Shown here piece by piece: positions 9,247 through 49,664 of a stretch of DNA of 64,000 nucleotides. A program made the position numbers and the translations under genes. Under the pieces are notes generated by a model that ran no database searches, was not told where the DNA came from, and was given only the letters and a program-made list of their open reading frames with translations. The DNA comes from Prorocentrum cordatum (lineage: Eukaryota), in the NCBI GenBank assembly GCA_963575745.1, contig CAUYUJ010000145.1:1-64000 (forward strand), read 5' to 3'. Each line of letters opens with the position of its first letter. The stretch's first letter is position 1.

Positions 9247-9454
9247 TGGACGCTGGAAGTGGGCACGGAAACCATGGGCACGATGCCCAACAGCAAATGC
9301 TGTCCCGAACCAACAGCGGCCGCTGTTTGGCAGGCGGCCTTCTGTCTCGAATGGACACAATCCGCGGCGACGCCGACAGCGAATCCCGTTCAAAATGAAC
9401 AAGAACTGCTGTCGGTCTTTGTACCGATTCTTTCCGTACCCATGTCGGTCGTCC
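9247..9454. mobile_element. MITE family B, copy 1 (degenerate)
   Basis: Colinear with the TIR element at 32381-32589. Confidence 0.75.
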
Positions 9455-9837
9455 CGATGGTCGGGACCCCAGAAATTGACGACCGAACAGCACACACACA
9501 CACCCATACCCATAGGGGGGTCGTTGGGAGGAAGACTGGCTATGGGTGTGGGTGCGGGTTGTCGACCCTGGGGTACTCTCCCGTTCGAGCGCGGGACCCC
9601 CATCCGACAACACGCACCCATAGCCCTCTCCGACCCCCCTAAGGGTATTGGTGTGTGTCGTTGGTTCGTTCAGGAAAAAAGTATCCCGGCAAAGCAACCT
9701 AACAGCGATGTGTAGGAGCATATCTGGAAGCATTCCCATTAAGATTCAGATGATAATCCAGTTGTAGACTTCTGCTGTTCTCGCAGTCGTAGTCGCATTC
9801 GCGATGACAGTCGCAGTGGCAACGGCAGTCGCAATCA

Positions 9838-29042: not shown

Positions 29043-29352
29043 CACTGGTTTAACGAAAAAATCGGCGTCTGCGGCGGGCTCGTTGTATAATTTGTGAAAC
29101 GTTGGCACCTGCTGCGGGCTTCTCCAGAATCTCGCAAATTGCCAACGTCCCCACCGCCCCCTCACTCTTTATCCGCATCTGCGGGGTGCCACGTAGAACA
29201 AAAATGCTCCAAAATAGTCACAATGAACGTCCCCCGACTGCTTTTTATAATTTTTGAACAGTCCTCCTGTAGAGGGACAGGCCCGACTTCACGGTAAGCA
29301 GGCGCACGGCCACAGATATGCAAGATGTTGCAGGGCCCCGCGGATCGCGTGG

Positions 29353-29991
29353 GTCGGCGCTGGACCCCAGCCCCTGCACACAAACCCTATGGCGCCGCCC
29401 TCGGAGCCGCGCACAGCGTGCAACGCGCGCCAGGCAGGGTGTGTGTGAGTGGGCGTGTGTGATGTGTGTTGTGTGTGAATTGTGTGTGTATGTCTGTTGT
29501 GTGTGCATGTGTGTGTTGTGTGTTGTGTGTGGGTTGTGCATTGTGTGCGTTGTGTGTGTATGTTTGGATATGTGTATGTGTTTGTGCTTGTGCTTGTGTG
29601 TGAATGTGTTTGTGCTTGTGTTTGTGCTTGTGTTGGTGCTTGTGGTTGTGGCTGTGTTTGTGTTCGTGCTCGTGTCGGCGTTTGTGTTTGTATGTGTTTC
29701 TGTGTGCGTGTTTATGTGCTTGTGTTCGGGTTTGTGTCTGTGCTTGTGCGTGTGCGTGTGCGTGCGCGTGTGCGTGTGGTTGTGCTTGTGTTTGTGTTTG
29801 TGTGCCTGGGGCTGTGTTTGTGTTATGTTTGTGCCTGTGCTTGTGCTTGTGTTTGTGTTTGTGTTTGTGCGTGCTTGTGTTTGTGTTTGGGTTTGTGTTT
29901 GTGTGTGCGTGCGTGCCTAAGTTGTGTTTTGTATGTGTGGTGTGTGTGTGTGTGTGTGCTGTGTTTGTGTGTGTGTGTGTCCAGCGCCGAC
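29353..29991. mobile_element. (TG)-rich tract bounded by 13-bp inverted repeats
   Basis: GTCGGCGCTGGAC (29353) ... GTCCAGCGCCGAC (29979). Confidence 0.5.
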
Positions 29992-30048
29992 TAGAATTCC
30001 ACGCGGATCTACACATCCGCATGCTTGTTCATGTGTAGCCTTCGGATC

Positions 30049-30666
30049 CTGCACGGCAGCGGTCGAGGAGAACTCGTTCACGAACTGATCATCAAAGCAC
30101 AGCCAGCTCGCGTCCTCCTGGCGCGCGAACGACACGTAGTGGCCGAACCCGCCGAAGCCCTGGTATATGATGAGGGCATGCGCCACGTACGTGTGCTGCT
30201 CTTGCCTCCAGCTGCAGAGCTTCTGGTGAATGCCCTCCACGTCCTCGGAGGTCAAGTGGCCACCCTGGACCAGCTGCTCCAGGGTATCGTTCGGAGTGTC
30301 CATGCCCCCGTCGAACACTAGGTCTGCGAGCTTCTGTGCGGTGTCGGCACCCAGCAGACCACACACGACAGTCTCTAGCTTCTCATCGTCCAGCGCGCCC
30401 CTCAGGAGCTCTGCGATGGGCACCTCCTTGACTGTCGCGTCGCTGCTGCATGCTGGATCTGAACTCGCACGTCCGTTCGAGGTGGCATCTGCCCCACTGG
30501 GCCCCCCTGGCGGCTGCGACGCCATGGCGAGCTCCAGGCCGGCGAGGAGCGCCTCGGGCGTCAGCTGCGCCGTGAAGGGCGCGAGGCTGAGGCACTCCTC
30601 CCAGTTCAGCTGCGTGACCTCGCGCACGGCGAAGCAGAGGAACGGCGGAAGCACGCGAAAGCGCTC
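30049..30666 (-). CDS. USP exon containing the His box
   Basis: ERFRVLPPFLCFAVRE...YVAHALIIYQGFGGFGHYVSFARQEDASWLCFDDQFV: the peptidase C19 GHY...WxxFDDxxV motif. Confidence 0.9.
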
Positions 30667-30858
30667 CTGATGGGCCTGTCTTCCACCACCACCACCATAA
30701 GTTGGAGGGGGGAAGGAGGTGGAGGACGTGGTGGAGGAGGACGAAGAGGAGGAGGAGGAGGAGGAGGAGGAGGAGGAGGAGGAGGAGAAGGGGGGGGAGG
30801 AGGAAGACCCCCTCCCCCTCCAACTCATGGTGGTGGTGGTGGAAAACAAGCCCATCAG
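30667..30858. mobile_element. Introner: 192-bp TIR element with a (GGA)n core that forms a complete intron
   Basis: ~45-bp TIRs CTGATGGGC(C/T)TGT(C/T)TTCCACCACCACCACCAT(A/G)AGTTGGAGGGGG. 3-bp TSD CTC at 30664-30666 and 30859-30861. Confidence 0.88.
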
Positions 30859-30861
30859 CTC

Positions 30862-30984
30862 CCGCGTCCACAGCAGCTCTTTGCCCCCAGTGCGCGTCCA
30901 GCCCGTGAAGTCCCGCAACGCCTGGGCCAGCGTCCGGTTGCCCCGCTGCACCGGGATGCAGAGGAACTGCCTGTCGGAGCAGTC
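30862..30984 (-). CDS. USP exon
   Basis: DCSDRQFLCIPVQRGNRTLAQALRDFTGW...WTR (FxxLxV...TLxxALxxF). CAG|GAC acceptor, 41 codons. Confidence 0.8.
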
Positions 30985-31824
30985 CTGGCGGCCGGCCGCG
31001 GGGCTGCTTTTTGTTTTTGAAGATGGCCCCGGGTGGCTCCCTCCAGCACGGCCCTAGATAGCCCAAAAGAGCCCCGAAGATCGCGAAAGGTGGTCCAGCT
31101 CCGTCCAAGGCGGCCTGTAGCGTGCCTCCAAGAGGCACCAAGGACGGCCCCTGAGGTTGCCACGTAGCCTCCCCAAGGATAATTACCCCCGAGAGGTCAA
31201 CACTGGCCATGGGCATGGTGTTTTGTTGACATGATGTGTGCCTTTTCGCTTTCGACGGGCATCCGAGGCCTCAAGATGGGCTCCACCAGGGATGGATGAG
31301 CAGCAGCAGAAGGAGCAGGAGATGAGGGAGGCGGGGCAGCAGCAGGAGGGAGGGGAAGGTGAGGCGACGCCAGCGACGACAAGGCCGACGACCACGGCGA
31401 CGCAACGATGACGCCAGCTATGACCAGAGCGACGTCGACGTGGACGACGACGCTGGAGCGACGCTAGCGACGCCGAAGGTGACGGCAGCAACGACCCTCG
31501 GTGACGGCCCGTGGTAACGGCGACGATGGCGTCGGCGACGATTCGGCGGCGTCCGAGAGGCGTCCGAGAGGGGGGCTCGCAAATCCTCGCCCGAAGCGTG
31601 TTGACGGCGGCGACGACGACGGCGGCGGCAACCGCGACGGCCCCCCGCCGCGCCTGGGGGCACCAAGGGGTACCGATACCGCTGTTGCCCGGACCTCTCC
31701 TGGGGGGGGCGCGTTCTGCCCAGGCTTGCGAGGCGAATCCAGCGGTGGCGACGAGGGCCTCCCAGGAGGCCGAAAAAAGAGGAAACCGGGGCGAAGGGCA
31801 GCGGTATGGGTACCTTCTCCTTCT

Positions 31825-32180
31825 CTGCTGGGCCTGTTTTCCACCACCACCACCATAAGTTGGATGGGGCAAGGAGGAGGAGGAGGAGGCGGAGGAGGAG
31901 GAGGAGGAGGAGGAGGAGGAGGTGGGGGAGGAGGGGAGGAGGAGGAGGAGGAGGAGGAGGAGAGAGGAGGAGGAGGAGGAGGAGGGAGGAGGAGGAGAGG
32001 AGGAGGAGGAGGAGGAGGAGAGGAAGAGGAGGAGGAGGAGGAGGAGGAGGAGAAAGAGGAGGAGAAAGAGGAGGAGAAAGAGGAGGAGGAAGAGGAGGAG
32101 GAGGAGGTGGGGGACGAGGACGAGGACCCCCTCCCCCTCCAGCTTGTGGTGGTGCCCGTGGCGGAAGACAGGCCCCTCCT
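31825..32180. mobile_element. Second, older copy of the introner family, inside an intron
   Basis: CTGCTGGGCCTGTTTTCCACCACCACCACCATAAGTTGG ... CCAGCTTGTGGTGGTGCCCGTGGCGGAAGACAGGCCC, with a longer GGA core. Confidence 0.8.
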
Positions 32181-32196
32181 TCTCGGAGGGCCGGTC

Positions 32197-32326
32197 CTCG
32201 GAGAGCGGGTAGCCGACGACGCTGGCGCCGTCGGCCGTCCGCGCGAGGGGCTCGAAGGCGGGCGCGGCGTCGCCGCCGGGGGCGGCGCAGCGCGCGTGCA
32301 CCTCGTAGGTGCGCCCCGAGAAGAGC
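32197..32326 (-). CDS. USP exon
   Basis: (R)LFSGRTYEVHARC...GYPLSE has the LFxG motif. Its phase-2 start is compatible with the upstream exon. Confidence 0.75.
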
Positions 32327-32380
32327 CTGGGCGGCGGCGGCGGCGGGGTCGAGGACGATACTTTGTGGTCTGCGGGTCTT

Positions 32381-32589
32381 TGGACGCCCGAAATGGGTAC
32401 GGAAAGAATGGGCACAATGCCCAACAACAAATGTTGTCCCAAACCAACAGCGGCCGCTGTTGGGCAGGCGGCCTTCTGTCTCAAATGAACACAGGCCGCG
32501 GCGGCGTGGACAGCGAATCCGGTTCAAAATGAACAGGAACTGCTGTTGGGCATTGTACCCATTCTTTCCGTGCCCATTTCGGGCGTCCA
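32381..32589. mobile_element. MITE family B, copy 2 (~49-bp TIRs)
   Basis: TGGACGCCCGAAATGGGTACGGAAAGAATGGGCACAATGCCCAACAACA ... TGCTGTTGGGCATTGTACCCATTCTTTCCGTGCCCATTTCGGGCGTCCA. Confidence 0.85.
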
Positions 32590-32774
32590 GAGGGTCGAGA
32601 GCGAGCCTCTTCCGGTTCAGAGCTAGGCGGGCCGCGCAAAGCACTAATTGGGGAGGCAGAGCGCAGGCGGGCGGGGCCTCAGGTGGCCGGAGGGCGCGGG
32701 GTGTAGGCGGTGCTAAGGAGCTTGTCAAGGACGACACACCGGGCGTTGTTAAAGGCAGACCTGGCCCAGGGTTC

Positions 32775-32923
32775 AGTCGGGCATGTCCTCCCACAGGCGG
32801 ATTCGGGGGGGAAAAAGCTGACCAAAATATTGAAAGATTGTCAAGAATGGTCGAGAAGTCGTCCCCCTGACTATGTTTCGACTATTTTGGGATACTCCTC
32901 CTGTAGAGGGACAGGCCCGACTT
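32775..32923. mobile_element. MITE family C (other ends at ~27337, ~29262-29289, ~33599)
   Basis: AGTCGGGCATGTCCTCCCACAGGCGGA ... TCCTCCTGTAGAGGGACAGGCCCGACT. Confidence 0.7.
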
Positions 32924-33721
32924 AAGCCCAAGGTGTTCCCAGTTGTCCTCACCATTTGGGAGCCCCATCAGGCCCCCCCTCAGTGCTCTCTGGAGGCCAT
33001 CCGGGCCTCCCCTGGGAAAGCTGGGGTCACATTTGTGCCAGGGCCACTTCTGGAAATACCAGAAACGAGGATGACGGCGAGTACCTGGATCAGCTAGAAG
33101 AGCGAACGAGATCGACAACGACGATCACGCCGAAACGGACGACGACGACAGTATCGAAGGAGGTCTCCAGAGGCCTCTGAAAATTTCACGAGACCTCCAC
33201 CTCGGAAAAGACACTTTCTGTGGTCGCTTGTAGGATCCCCCCGGGGTTGGCCATGTCGGGGCAATCCCAACCAACTGGTACTTCGGTACTTCTTCCAACC
33301 AACACGAAAAGCCAAACCAGCCAAATAACCTCACTGTATGATTATCACCGTGAGGAGATGACAGTTTACATACAAAAACCAAATAAACTGCTTATGCGTG
33401 CGCCTGTTATACCAACAACTAACATGACTGCCCAGGTTGTCACAAAACGGCTTGCGAAGATGTGGAACTCAAGATGTAGATGTGGATGGCGGTGCTAATG
33501 AATAGGCACTCTTATCCCCTCGAACAAAACCAGAATAGAATCCCCATTCAAACCGCTTAAGGGTTCACATGGGGTCTTTACAAGTTAAGGGCTTGTTAGG
33601 TCGGGCATGTCCCCCTACAGGCGGATGTTGGACGGAACCTTAAAAAAAAACATGCCCAAACATCATCAAACAATCATTGAAACATCGTCTCATGACTATG
33701 GTTTGACCATGTGTGAATATT

Positions 33722-44105: not shown

Positions 44106-44858
44106 CCAGGCAGCCTAGCCTCGCGGTAAGACTTCTCGGGGGAGCCTCTACCCCTTGCGCTCTTTTTTCTCCTCCGCCCCCCTCCCTCTTCCACGCTCTA
44201 GGTAGGGCCCCCGTGCGCCCGGGGAGCGGCAGGCAGATGCTGTGCAGCCTCTGTAGAGGAACCGAATCAGAACCCTTTTGTTTCAAGTCCGCACAGGTAG
44301 TTTTGATGTTTCCTGCGTCTCCTCCTCCTCCTCCTCCTCCTTTTCCTCCTTCTCCCCCCTCCAGCCTTCTGCCCAGCAGGCAGTGCATCTCCTGTGAGGA
44401 TTGTGTGACGGACAGCGCATCAGTTGCAAAACAGAGCATAGGTAGAAAAAAAGGGGTGGAGGGGGTGGGTGGTGGGGGGGTTCTGTCTCTCCGCGCCGTC
44501 GGCCTCAGGAGGCCGTTTTTCGGGCCCCGGGGGGTCGCCTCGTCCCCTCTCCCTCCCGTCCTCCCGCTCCGCAGGGCCGGGCCGGGCGGGTCGGGTCTGC
44601 CGGGGCCAGGCCGCCCTCCCCTCCTCCTCCTCCTCCTCCTCCTCCTCCTCCTCCTCCTCCTCCTCCTCCTCCTCCTCCTCCTCCTCCTCCTCCTCCTCCT
44701 CCTCCTCCTCCTCCTCCTCCTCCTCCTCCTCCTCCTCCTCCTCCTCCTCCTCGGTCCCTTCCCAGCCTTCGCTCTTCCCTCCCTGTCGTCGTGCCGCTGC
44801 CGCCGCTTTCGCTGCCGTCGGCCGCCGCGTGTCGTCGTCGTCGTCGTCGTCGTCGTCG

Positions 44859-44901
<43 letters not shown>

Positions 44902-45104
44902 GCGTCGGCGTCGTCGTCGTCGTCGTCGTCGTCGGGGTCGCCGCCGCTGCCGCTGGTGGCCTCCGCGTGGCCTCGTGCCGCCGCGTGGGGGAGAGCTGGC
45001 AAGCTGGCCCAGGAGCGTGCTCCTTGGGAGAGTGCGAAGCCCAGCCCTCGGAGGCATGCCGGCCGCGGCAGCCCCTCCGAGGCCAGTTGGGGTGCCCTCT
45101 CCCC

Positions 45105-45158
<54 letters not shown>

Positions 45159-45159
45159 C

Positions 45160-45280
<121 letters not shown>

Positions 45281-45705
45281 GGGTCGCCGCTGCCGCCGCA
45301 GGGGGCTGCCGCGTGCCCTCGTGCCGCCGCGTGAGGGAGAGCTGGCAAGCAGGCCCTGGAGCGCGCATCGGGGCGCCGAGGCCGCTGCCATCGGCCGCCG
45401 GGAGTCCTCGAGTCGCCGTGGGGGCAGGCCGTTGGGGGTCCTGGAGGTCCTTTCGAGCCTTCGGAGGCCCTGGGTGTTCCGTCGGGGGTCCTGATCGCGT
45501 CCCCGTTCCTCGGCTCTTGGGGTTTCCCTTGTCGCCGTCTCCGGTGGCAGCTCTGAAAACTTGTGCCTTCGGTCCTGGGGGTCTCTGCCCTTCCCCTTTC
45601 CCGCCTCCCTCCTTGCCCTCGTGTGCTGGCTTCTCTTCCTCCCTCCTCCCCGGCTCTAGTGAGAGGAGTGGCCAAGGGCTACATCTCAGCGTCCCTGGGG
45701 CAGCC

Positions 45706-48700
45706 ATGGACAGCCTGCTGGGTGCTATCTGGGACGCTTTCCCGCATGAAAGGGGCTTCGGGCCTCAAGGAGACCAGGCGGCGGACGCTCTACTGCAGTT
45801 CAGGTGGCAGCAACTCCAGGAGGAGGCGCACAGGCTTATGTCCATGGCTAGGCGTGGGGAGTGCCCCCCGTTTTCTCAGTCCCTCTCCGAGCTGCTTGCG
45901 TCCCTGAGGTGGGCGTTGGGGGTCCAGGTCCTCGGTTCACCCAGCGACAGAGCCTCGCCCGTGCTGGAGGGGGTGGGAGCGAGCACCCCCTCAGAAGTGA
46001 GGATTGGCGTAGGTTCGCCGAGTACCTTGGGATGCCTCTCCATTGATGGCTCCAGGGTGCGATGGGGTGTTTTCACAGATCGCAAAGCAGGCATCTTGGA
46101 AGCGTTCAGCCGGCTCAATCTCGTCGTGTTGGGGCTGCCAGGCGCACGCCTCACTGAAGGGGTCGTCATCCCGGGGCATGCCGACATAGGCATAGAGGCG
46201 CAGGGCGGCCCCTCCTACGCCAGTGTCGCTGTCATTTGGGACAAGGTCCGGCTCCCTTCGGCCAGCAAGGTAGCAAAGGTAGGTTCCAATCGTCGGCTGT
46301 GGCTGAGTACTCTCGATGCGCATGGGCTCTCGTGGTATTTCTGCACGGTCTACCTTCCACCTGCGCCCAAAAGGGGTCCAGACCATGAGTGGTTTCTCGA
46401 AGTAGACGGGCTTCACGAGGACGTGGAGGCACTTCTGGGGCCAGCACCTCTTCCAGACAGCGCTCGTGTGGTTGTCATGGGGGACATCAACATGCAGCCG
46501 GAGGAGATTCACGGGGCTCGGGAGCCATCGCGAGCCCGTGCAATCCGCTGGTCACGTTTTGTCGCCACGTGGGGCTTCTCACTCATCAACCCTCCGTCCG
46601 GCCAGGGGCCTGCCTCCAAAGTGTGTCTGCCCCTCCGGGGCCGGAGCCTCGACCTCAGACCAGGGGGCACCCATCACGGTGGGAACAGCGCGCGATGCAT
46701 CGATGTAGTGATTGTTTCCCGGGCGGCCCACGGTGTAGCTCGAGTGCACAACGGACTATCCTGTCGAGGGGAGGGGGGGTGCAGCTGGGAAGAATGCGTG
46801 GAGTACACGTACGGGGACCATTTCCTCATCGACTTCACTGTCCCCCTTCCTCTTCCGCCGGTGTGCGACGGTCCAGGGGCCCCATTCGCATGCCGCGGTG
46901 GTGGAACTCTGAGGCTGCATGGGCCGAGGGGCTCGCCGTGGCCCGCCCAGTCCTGCAAGCGCATGCGGGCATTCTGCGGCATTACTGCGAGGATGAAGAG
47001 GGCAGCTCCCATACGAGGAAACTAGGTCTGAGAGCGGCGCAGTGGTTGGCGGACGTGGCCGCCTGGCTGCTGCATCTCATTCTGGGTCTCGTCCTGGCGG
47101 GTTGGGTGGTGCCTCAGGCGGCTGCCTGCCCCCGTAGGCGCACTGGGACCCCAGCCCTGCGGGGCAAGGTGCGGTCGGCCATCGAAGGGCCGGGCACAGC
47201 TCAGGAACGTGCAGTAAAATGCATGCGGCTCCTACGCCCGAGGGAGCCCAGGCCAGCACCCCGTCTGAGGGGACATGCTGGGGAGACCCTGTCTCTAGAA
47301 GCCTCGCGGGAGTCCTTGTGCCAACAGTTACGGGACCAGTCACAGTGGCCAGGTCCGTGGGACCTGGACTTCCATGCACATGTGCAGGGCACTCTGCCCG
47401 GGGTTCAAGGCCAAGCACGTGCCTACCGTGGGCGCGGGTCGCACGATGCCCCGGTAGAGCTGTGGGAAGTCGAAGTTTCTCGGTCCACCATGGGCAGCAC
47501 AGGGGCCACGACGCCAGACCTGGTGCCGCGTCGCGCCCTTAAGCTGGGTGACACGGTTCTGCTGACGGCTGTCTGGTCGGCCCTGCGTCTGACGGGCCCC
47601 GGGTGCCTCGCTCTTCGACCAGCGGCCTGGAGGGGCAGCTGCGCCGTCCCTCTGCACAAGGAGGGCCCGCTGGACAAGGGGGCCTCTTTCCGGCTCATCA
47701 TGGTAAAATCACAGATGGGCCTGCTGCAGGAGATGCTGCTCCACCAGAGGCTCGCGCAGCAACTCCGCGCGTCCATTTTCCCAGGCCAAAGCGGCTACGT
47801 GCGAGACGTGGGAGACGCCCACCTTGTCCTCCACGAGCTCGCGGCAGGGGCGAAGGGAGCAGGCCGGCCTCTTTGGGCGGTTTTCGGGGACCTTCAAAAG
47901 GCCTTTCCCCGGACCTGGACGGAGGTGCTCCTCTTACGTCTTCATGAAAAGGCCGGTGTGCGTGGTGGCATCTTCTCGCTTCTGGCGAGCATGCTCGCTT
48001 CGGACACGATCCATGTCAACTTCAACGGAGTCTCCACTGTTTCCATTGACCAAGGGATTGCCGAAGGGGGAACGGTGGGTCCCCTGACCTTTCCTGTATA
48101 CATGGACTCTCTCCCAGAAGCCTTACACAAGGCAGGCTGCGGAATCGGAGTAGGAGTCCGCGTTCCGTGCGCCTGGGTCGGCTGCTCGTGGCGGGGCACA
48201 GGCATGCCCGATCCTGTCCAGACCGCCGAGCTCACCAGAGCACTCCGCGAGGGCACGCAGCTCCCTCGGGCAGCGGATCTAGAAGCCGATCTTACGCTGG
48301 AAGCCTCTGCTCTGGCCGCACTGGATGCCACCGCGCCATTTGGCCTCGCTGCAATTCTACACGCGGACGACCCGGTTCTGCTCTCTTCCACTCGGGGAGG
48401 AGCGCAGCTCGCGCAGAATGCTCTAGCCGAGTGGGCTTTTGCTCACAAAGCCAGTCCGCATACCAAGCCCTCCAAACACGCTGTTGTAGTGCATGGCTCC
48501 CCGGAGTCCCGGAGGGCAGGGGCGGCAGCAGCTCCCCTTGTGCTACCGCTCCGGGGAGGGGCGCCTATTGAACTAGGGCTCAAAGACACACACCAGTGGC
48601 TCGGGCTACTCTGGTCTGGTGACCTCGACTTCTCGAAACTGCTCGATGCAAGGCTGGGCACCGCTTCCGCACAGTGCGCCTCCCTCGCGGGGCATGTTGC

Positions 48701-49664
48701 TGCCGGAGTCCTTCCGCTCGCTGTGGCGGTTCGCATCTTCGAGACCCAGATCGAAGGCGCACTGCGCTTCGGGCGCTGGATGTGGGCAGTTGCGGAGGGG
48801 GCGTCGGACAAGCTTGAACAGAGCTATGGAGCGTGGGCGCGCGCCTTTCTGGGCTGTCCGCCCTGGCGAGGGCAGGCCCTCGCTCCCTTGGAGTTGGGCT
48901 GGGCTCTCTCCGGGCCTGCCAGGGCCGTGTACGAGGTGGCCTCCCGGCGGGCCGGTCTCTGGAGGCTCCCCGACGCAGATCTCTACAAACGGGTTTTCCT
49001 GCAGGCCCACGGGTCAGAGGGCCGCACCTGGGCGCAGCTGTCGCTTGCCCTCCTCGAGGCTTGGTCCATCCCGGATTGGCCTGCTTGGGAGGGCATGTAT
49101 GGAGGGTCGTCCCTGCACGCATACAAGGTCCACGTCCGGGCCCTCCTGAAGGCGCGGTGCGGGGAGGAACTGCGGAGGCAGGCGGGCGTGCTCCAGAGGC
49201 CGCTTCCGGTCCTTGCTCTCGGCCCAGTCCCCAGGACGGACCTGGCCGGGGCCCTCAAGCTAGGGTTCCCTTTCGAAGTGCTACTGGGCCAGCGCTCGCT
49301 CAGCAGGCTTCGGGGGCGGTTGGTCGCCCTAGGGCACTCTTCTGGTTCCCTCTCTTCGGCACGGAGGCAAATGTGTGTGCTCTGCGGGGAGCAGTTTCTG
49401 AGTCCAACCTTCCATGTTCTCGGGAGCTGTGGCAGTACGGAGTTCCCCAGGCGCGCTTTCTGGGAGGCCCGAGGGTGCACAGCTCCCTCCTCCAGAGAGG
49501 CTGCGGCCACGGCGATTCTGTCGGCTGCCCCGGCAGACGCGGGGTACAAGGAGGCGGCGCTGCTTGCGCTCCACGTGGAGAGGGAGGCGGATCGCTTCTG
49601 GGCATCCGCAGGCAACAATTACCTCCCCCCTCCCGCCCTCCCTCCCCTCTGCCCGGGGCACTGA
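45706..49664 (+). CDS. LINE ORF2 (endonuclease-RT-CCHC) with one frameshift near 46880
   Basis: EN motifs TVYLPP, VMGDIN, IDVVIV, GDHFLI. RT motifs QSGY, DLQKAF, GIAEGGTVGPLTF, HADD, WLG. C-terminal CVLC-x9-H-x4-C. Confidence 0.9.

Follow-up and report, generated by a model that had tools for sequence, protein, structure and literature searches.

A 192-bp inverted-repeat element removed as an intron from a deubiquitinase gene of Prorocentrum cordatum

The host gene and the anatomy of the element

The locus lies in a gene for a USP/UCH deubiquitinase on the minus strand of the window, by which we mean the whole 64,000-nt stretch of Prorocentrum cordatum DNA that was analysed. The annotated protein P0001 (source name 'unnamed protein product, partial [Prorocentrum cordatum]'; 669 residues) maps to the minus strand of the window between 61089 and 14794, in exons separated by 9 introns of 195 to 20,113 nt. 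The exon downstream of the 195-nt intron is 100% identical to P0001 and matches the UCH domain PF00443 (E 1.9e-5). The G+C content of the window is mostly 0.55-0.70, in agreement with the high G+C that Dougan et al. 2023 (PMC10666404) report for P. cordatum (59.7% genome, 65.9% coding). Simple repeats and low-complexity open frames are abundant on both strands of the window. One of them, a (CA)n / (ACAC)-rich microsatellite at 29250-29990, begins about 50 nt past the exon that ends near 30047. The features of the locus are as follows.

31825..32175, minus strand: second copy of the element (sister copy B), oriented like copy A, right arm intact and left arm degraded
30985..32196, minus strand: neighbouring intron of the gene, GA...AG, 1212 nt, with its joint found in 4/4 runs; houses sister copy B
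30862..30984, minus strand: upstream USP exon (...FLCIPVQRGNRTLAQALRDFTGWTRTGGKELLWTR), supported by RNA contigs
30667..30861, minus strand: spliceosomal intron, 195 nt, GA...AG, phase 0, made up of the upstream GAG and the entire 192-bp element
30859..30861, minus strand: upstream copy of the putative target-site duplication, GAG, with GA read from the sequence as the 5' splice site
30667-30858, minus strand (gene strand): the element (copy A), 192 bp, bordered by GAG on each side and built of an (AGG/TCC)30 core between terminal inverted repeats of 45 nt
30814..30858, minus strand: left terminal inverted repeat, CTGATGGGCTTG..., the 5' arm in the transcript
30712..30813, minus strand: core, a sense-strand (TCC)n microsatellite, 89% pyrimidine by composition
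30667..30711, minus strand: right terminal inverted repeat, whose terminal CAG (30669..30667) is the 3' splice site
30664..30666, minus strand: downstream copy of the putative target-site duplication, GAG, kept in the mRNA as a Glu codon
30049..30666, minus strand: downstream USP exon (ERFRVLPPFLCF..., through the His-box region), supported by Pfam UCH, P0001 and RNA contigs

Read on the minus strand from 30870 to 30658, the sequence runs ...TGG ACG CGG / GAG CTGATGGG...(TCC)n...CCCATCAG / GAG CGC TTT. The two arms are 45 nt each and 93% complementary across a spacer of 102 nt, and they are the only inverted pair that the repeat finder gave. Three of the 45 arm positions are mismatched. Within the spacer, Tandem Repeats Finder reports (AGG)30.3 at 30714-30804. 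The 24-nt end motif occurs at three places in the 64-kb window, namely both arms of copy A and one arm of copy B at 31825, against 0.00 expected from 100 shuffles. No Pfam domain falls in the element, and the open frames that cross it are low-complexity. Copy A is thus short and non-coding, has inverted ends and a flanking duplication, and is present in multiple copies, which are the features of a MITE.

The length of the duplication depends on where the element is taken to end. Assigning the terminal C/G of each arm to the flank gives a direct repeat of 5 nt (GGAGC); otherwise the repeat is GAG. We favour a 3-bp duplication over one of 5 bp, judging from one intact copy, because the loose ends of RNA contigs from elsewhere (see below) stop at the CTG/CAG ends and because copy B has the same outer C.

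A short direct repeat could be attributed to the gene rather than to an insertion. In all 9 introns between 14794 and 61089 (minus strand), the two boundaries share 3-10 identical letters; at the 3009-nt intron, for instance, these are GCAGGACAGC. A transposon in this gene therefore cannot be recognised by a short direct repeat only, and a target duplication is convincing only together with an abutting inverted repeat. For each intron, the first 80 bases were locally aligned with the last 80 after reverse complementation, and shuffled sequences were treated likewise. Only one of the 9 introns has inverted ends. The 195-nt intron scores 37.5 against a shuffle maximum of 10.5, while the other eight score 5-11.5, near their own shuffle ranges. 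The repeated borders of the USP introns fit the 'identically repeated intron boundaries' of dinoflagellates.

Removal of the element from the mRNA

RNA contigs of four runs, one from each of four studies, were aligned to 29950-33400. Run X14 is recorded as polyA RNA, and for X1, X7 and X8 the type of run is unrecorded. Three of the run labels are organism codes and the fourth is marine metagenome. All four are Logan contigs, which show which forms of a transcript exist and carry no abundance of each form. Stretches of the aligned region that lacked RNA cover were excluded as evidence. Contigs that bridge an exon–element boundary, if any, may be among 608 pieces outside those listed.

In each of the four runs one contig, of 959 to 2857 nt, skips exactly 195 nt and exactly 1212 nt. 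The aligned blocks are 30047-30662, 30858-30981 and 32194-32329 (to 32288 in X14), with 0 mismatches over 835-876 aligned bases per run. The absence of the 1212-nt intron from these very contigs marks them as mRNA-derived. At both joints, 5 letters could belong to either side. The 195-nt skip accordingly has six equivalent placements, and only one of these, 30861..30667, starts with G and ends with AG; it reads GA...AG with G as the next base. The element is therefore removed from the mRNA as a spliceosomal intron, and the intron is the element itself, as expected of an introner: the inverted repeat spans intron base 4 to the last base.

The borders are those in use in this species. Dougan et al. 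2023 (PMC10666404) give P. cordatum donors as 24.7% GT, 51.4% GC and 23.8% GA, and AGG acceptors as 79.7%. The 9 introns of the USP gene have 5 GC donors, 4 GA donors and no GT donor.

Much of this had been foreseen in the first-pass annotation, made from the sequence alone. Its layout of the minus strand and its coordinates, 30664..30861, are correct. The junction that it predicted, 30862/30666, is present in the RNA contigs of all four runs and in the public gene model (LLWTRE|RFRVLPP). It had also proposed that one copy of the duplication plus the element makes up the intron, so that splicing exactly restores the coding sequence, and the GA...AG placement, the sole one of the six with an AG acceptor, bears this out. 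Finally, it had described the intron as in frame, stop-free and 65 amino acids long when read through. The 195-nt segment is indeed open in the gene frame (within an ORF at 29917..31053), yet 4 of the 6 frames are open across the element. We therefore reject the open frame as a sign of selection.

Protein comparison places the same 195 nt outside the coding sequence. P0001 lacks the 65 residues and reads ...GKELLWTRE|RFRVLPPFLCF... at this point. Three homologues, P0002 (84% identity), P0003 (39%) and P0004 (40%), were compared with it. Against the read-through translation, P0001 and all three homologues show a clean gap of 65 residues, which falls within the conserved block W-x-x-E-x-F-R-x-x-P-P-F-L. 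The gap in all four proteins means that the element is not coding sequence in any known relative.

The other end of the downstream exon differs slightly between RNA and annotation. The match to RNA contigs breaks off at 30047 in 4/4 runs, and the annotated protein extends to 30040 (AAVQDPK|EAIAEK). A GA donor at 30048 is probably used in the RNA; the product would then read AAVQ|EAIAEK, like P0002. Possibly the public model has 3 residues too many; alternatively, a second donor may be in use near 30039-30049.

An empty insertion site and the spliced product are identical letter for letter, by construction. The same joint could thus come from cells or alleles that lack the insertion, in which case the 195-nt skip would reflect absence from the DNA and not splicing. 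The search for runs gave no DNA run holding the whole stretch for comparison: 20 runs matched part of 29950-32350, and none of them had half or more of its words. That the cells which supplied the RNA carry the element in their DNA is instead indicated by the 0-mismatch identity of the contigs and by the public gene model. We regard such a polymorphism as very unlikely, because the same joint occurs in all four runs from four studies with 0 mismatches, because the public gene model of this very assembly also skips those 195 nt, and because the boundaries obey the GA...AG|G rule of P. cordatum.

The transcript strand of the element is predicted to fold into a 45-bp stem. Shuffled sequences average -71.0 kcal/mol in minimum free energy, the element -109.6 (z = -9.1); none of 200 shuffles was as stable. 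The donor lies 3 nt outside the stem, beside the acceptor in the last pairs of the stem. Each of the three arm mismatches becomes G.U in sense RNA but A.C in antisense RNA, so the stem is perfect only when the element is transcribed in sense. This bias involves three sites and, given that all are transitions, would arise by chance about 1 time in 8; it is at best a hint. The hairpin may aid splicing, as may the pyrimidine core, which possibly serves as a polypyrimidine tract.

Stable hairpins between direct repeats are also the classic setting for template switching. The reverse transcriptase or the assembler could have jumped over the hairpin between the 5-nt repeats, with the real mRNA keeping the 65 codons. 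The strength of the 45-bp stem, the GGAGC on each side and the open frame would all suit such an artefact. Several observations weigh heavily against it. In 4/4 runs the contigs cross the joint without branching, which would be unexpected were a retained form abundant. Retention would interrupt a conserved USP-domain block with 65 residues that all three homologues lack. Boundaries are repeated in the remaining 8 introns as well, yet none of these has a hairpin. Taken together, these make a jump artefact highly improbable.

Copies of the element and its proposed origin

The first-pass annotation had noted a sister copy about 1 kb away inside an intron, and copy B is indeed housed in the 1212-nt intron. 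Its right arm, at 31829-31869, is 95% identical to copy A, and its left arm, at 32133-32175, is 86% identical and misses the outer 5 bases. The core of copy B is a 263-nt pyrimidine tract, (TCC)n. The good arms of the two copies differ at 3-4 of 45 positions. The first-pass annotation had inferred that the family works in either orientation. The two copies lend this no support: both have the same orientation relative to the USP gene, and only one of the two, copy A, is an intron by itself.

We considered and rejected copy B as the source of the 1212-nt intron. Copy B is set back 21 nt from the donor and 840 nt from the acceptor, and the intron lacks inverted ends. On both sides copy B is flanked by GAGAAGGAG (31815-31824 and 32176-32184), a 9-nt repeat in place of the 3 nt of copy A. 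This flank repeat could be a coincidence within purine repeats or the result of a microhomology deletion.

Other repeated units lie close by. A 146-bp unit at 31669-31814, bounded by a 16-nt inverted pair (94%), adjoins copy B via AGAAGGAGAA only. It has the top RNA-contig depth of the aligned stretch, 3355 in X1. A second MITE-like element of about 212 bp, with inverted ends of about 40 nt, occupies 32381-32592 within the 4168-nt intron, and a copy of it, 87% identical, lies 23 kb away at 9247-9457. RNA-contig depth over this element is hundreds to thousands, in many variants. Farther off, ORFs at 44446-49661 on the plus strand match Exo_endo_phos (E 7.3e-4) and RVT_1 (E 2e-6), both weakly, which suggests a LINE-like retrotransposon lying antisense within the 20-kb USP intron.

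Copies A and B are the only two DNA copies seen in the window. Both belong to one gene, share an orientation and are separated by 1 kb, and this is what would be expected if no transposon were involved and a local inverted duplication had formed around a microsatellite, been copied once nearby and happened to be spliceable. The RNA contigs speak against this. Among the pieces listed, contigs leave the arms for unrelated sequence at 30666 (X1, 2 records), 30668 (X7, 3 records) and 30858 (X1, 1 record), exactly at the ends of the element. The arm bins of X1 reach summed depths of 949 and 418, which is 35- to 80-fold the 11.8 of the USP gene. Arm contigs with unrelated flanks, together with this depth, mean that other transcribed copies exist and that similarity between copies ends at the CTG/CAG ends. 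The element also has defined ends and a flanking duplication. A purely local duplication thus seems a poor account of the locus, and we give it very little weight.

Searches for further copies were less productive. The 13-nt end motif, with up to 2 mismatches allowed, matches 7 times in the window against 3.05 expected by chance; three matches are known arms and the remaining 4 each have 2 mismatches. The first-pass annotation had proposed a search for a transposase with the same terminal repeats, and within the window neither the end motif nor Pfam brought one to light. The 75 long ORFs of the window (34 + 41) contain no transposase domain by Pfam, giving weak low-complexity matches only, plus the LINE-like reverse transcriptase and endonuclease. 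A 21-nt arm pattern matched at least 120 loci in a metagenome scan; these are chance matches, of which the best among those listed agreed with the arm at 30/45 positions and none was two-armed. A 27-nt arm pattern gave 0 matches in a scan of viral contigs. A protein search for exonised copies, in which longer proteins were compared with the read-through of the element in one frame, scored 8000 candidates and found none at E <= 0.1, a weak negative. An Rfam scan of 29900-33000 gave 7 matches with E of 0.1-0.8, all far below gathering scores, and hence no known RNA family. Among the transposase groups that make 3-bp duplications are PIF/Harbinger and CACTA.

We think it very probable that copy A is a MITE that inserted into a coding exon of the USP gene and is now spliced as a 195-nt intron by means of its duplicated target and the end of its inverted repeat. 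A non-autonomous DNA transposon, a 192-bp MITE with 45-nt ends (CTG...CAG) and a TCC core, would have inserted at a GAG triplet inside the exon and duplicated it. The spliceosome of P. cordatum, which takes GA donors as well as GC and GT, would then excise the upstream GAG with the whole element as a phase-0 intron of 195 nt. The duplicated target would supply GA as donor, and the terminal three bases of the inverted repeat, CAG, would serve as acceptor. The next base, G from the second GAG, would complete AG|G, the motif preferred by dinoflagellates, and the reading frame that preceded the insertion would be exactly restored. In the transcript the arms could pair as a 45-bp stem that sets both splice sites side by side.

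Relation to described introners

By this reading of its parts, with the duplication supplying the donor and the element end supplying the acceptor, copy A is an introner of a known dinoflagellate type. The closest parallel for the arrangement is the ILE of Symbiodinium (Roy; for S. microadriaticum family 1, Gozashti 2022, PMC9860276). For S. microadriaticum introners, Gozashti et al. 2022 (PMC9860276) describe 4-bp duplications, inverted ends that contain the 3' site and a 5' site co-opted from the duplication. In the Symbiodinium ILE, as in copy A, the 3' splice site lies at the end of the inverted repeats, direct repeats flank the element with the upstream copy forming the 5' splice site, and the element runs CT...AG. 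GA donors are there typical of recently gained introns, among which Roy et al. (bioRxiv 10.1101/2020.10.14.339549) report them as commoner. The two differ in detail. The Symbiodinium ILE has a 4-nt duplication with CT at +5/+6, whereas copy A has 3 nt (or 5) and CT at +4/+5, which sets it outside that definition. Copy A also differs in its 45-nt arms, its microsatellite core and its host genus, Prorocentrum.

In Polarella glacialis, Roy et al. (bioRxiv 10.1101/2020.10.14.339549) describe 15 classes whose duplications measure between 3 and 8 nt, a 3-nt class among them. Judged by their published descriptions, copy A resembles three of these. In ILE classes 4/5 (duplication GHNN, one orientation) and 9 (3-nt duplication), as in copy A, the donor is taken from the 5' end of the duplication, G-H-N, and the acceptor from the end of the element. 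Class 9 shares the 3-nt duplication, but its introns occur in four frames relative to the element, and a single frame has been seen for copy A. Median tip lengths for the P. glacialis classes are given as 0.9-3.8% in the same preprint. The first-pass description of copy A as young, caught in the act, is not supported: judged by the divergence of its arms, copy A does not appear obviously younger than these classes.

Introner elements have been counted in P. cordatum itself. The survey of Dougan et al. 2023 (PMC10666404) is pattern-based and finds them in 2.4% of introns. It defines IE+ introns by inverted repeats of 8-20 nt with direct repeats of 3-5 nt, at most 30 bases from the intron ends. 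The 195-nt intron, from the same species, falls under this definition (Dougan 2023 / Farhat 2021). The survey text (PMC10666404) treats such introns without families, end sequences, duplication length or splice geometry. In the introner elements of Amoebophrya (Farhat et al. 2021, PMC7789003), inverted repeats and 3-5-nt direct repeats likewise lie over the exon/intron borders, and a predicted hairpin joins the exon ends. Those introns have mostly non-canonical, variable borders and repeats of 8-20 nt, whereas copy A has GA-AG|G borders and 45-nt arms.

The first-pass annotation had suggested that the family may be undescribed, which overstates the case. The mechanism, the link to GA donors and the existence of introner elements in P. 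cordatum are already published; only the sequence family was not found in print. Our literature search found no sequence-level description of the copy A family, including its end motifs. In Gozashti et al. 2025, the name 'Prorocentrum' is absent from the main text and from the supplementary files that were searched, 12 of 14. The catalogue of Gozashti et al. 2022 (PMC9860276) excluded low-complexity families by filtering.

A bolder reading is that copy A belongs to an abundant, still mobile introner family of Prorocentrum, with a 3-bp duplication and CTG...CAG ends, of which this would be the first sequence-level sighting. Such a family might be adapted to splicing, through a polypyrimidine tract in the core, used in the sense orientation, and arms maintained as a perfect RNA stem that joins donor and acceptor, and might have been hidden by the low-complexity filters of the catalogues. 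We put this forward tentatively and consider it rather unlikely as a whole. Outside the dinoflagellates, the introners of Aureococcus anophagefferens, reportedly described by Huff, Zilberman and Roy in 2016, are said to have a stramenopile host, GT-AG borders and a longer duplication than copy A.

The locus offers what is probably a clean, RNA-supported case, at a single site, of a DNA transposon becoming an intron at insertion. It does so in P. cordatum, a GC-rich, bloom-forming species in which such elements have so far been counted by pattern search only. If the family proves large, its 3-bp duplication, microsatellite core and perfect sense hairpin would add a class to the diversity of dinoflagellate introners, and it would provide a handle on whether the structure of an element aids its splicing.
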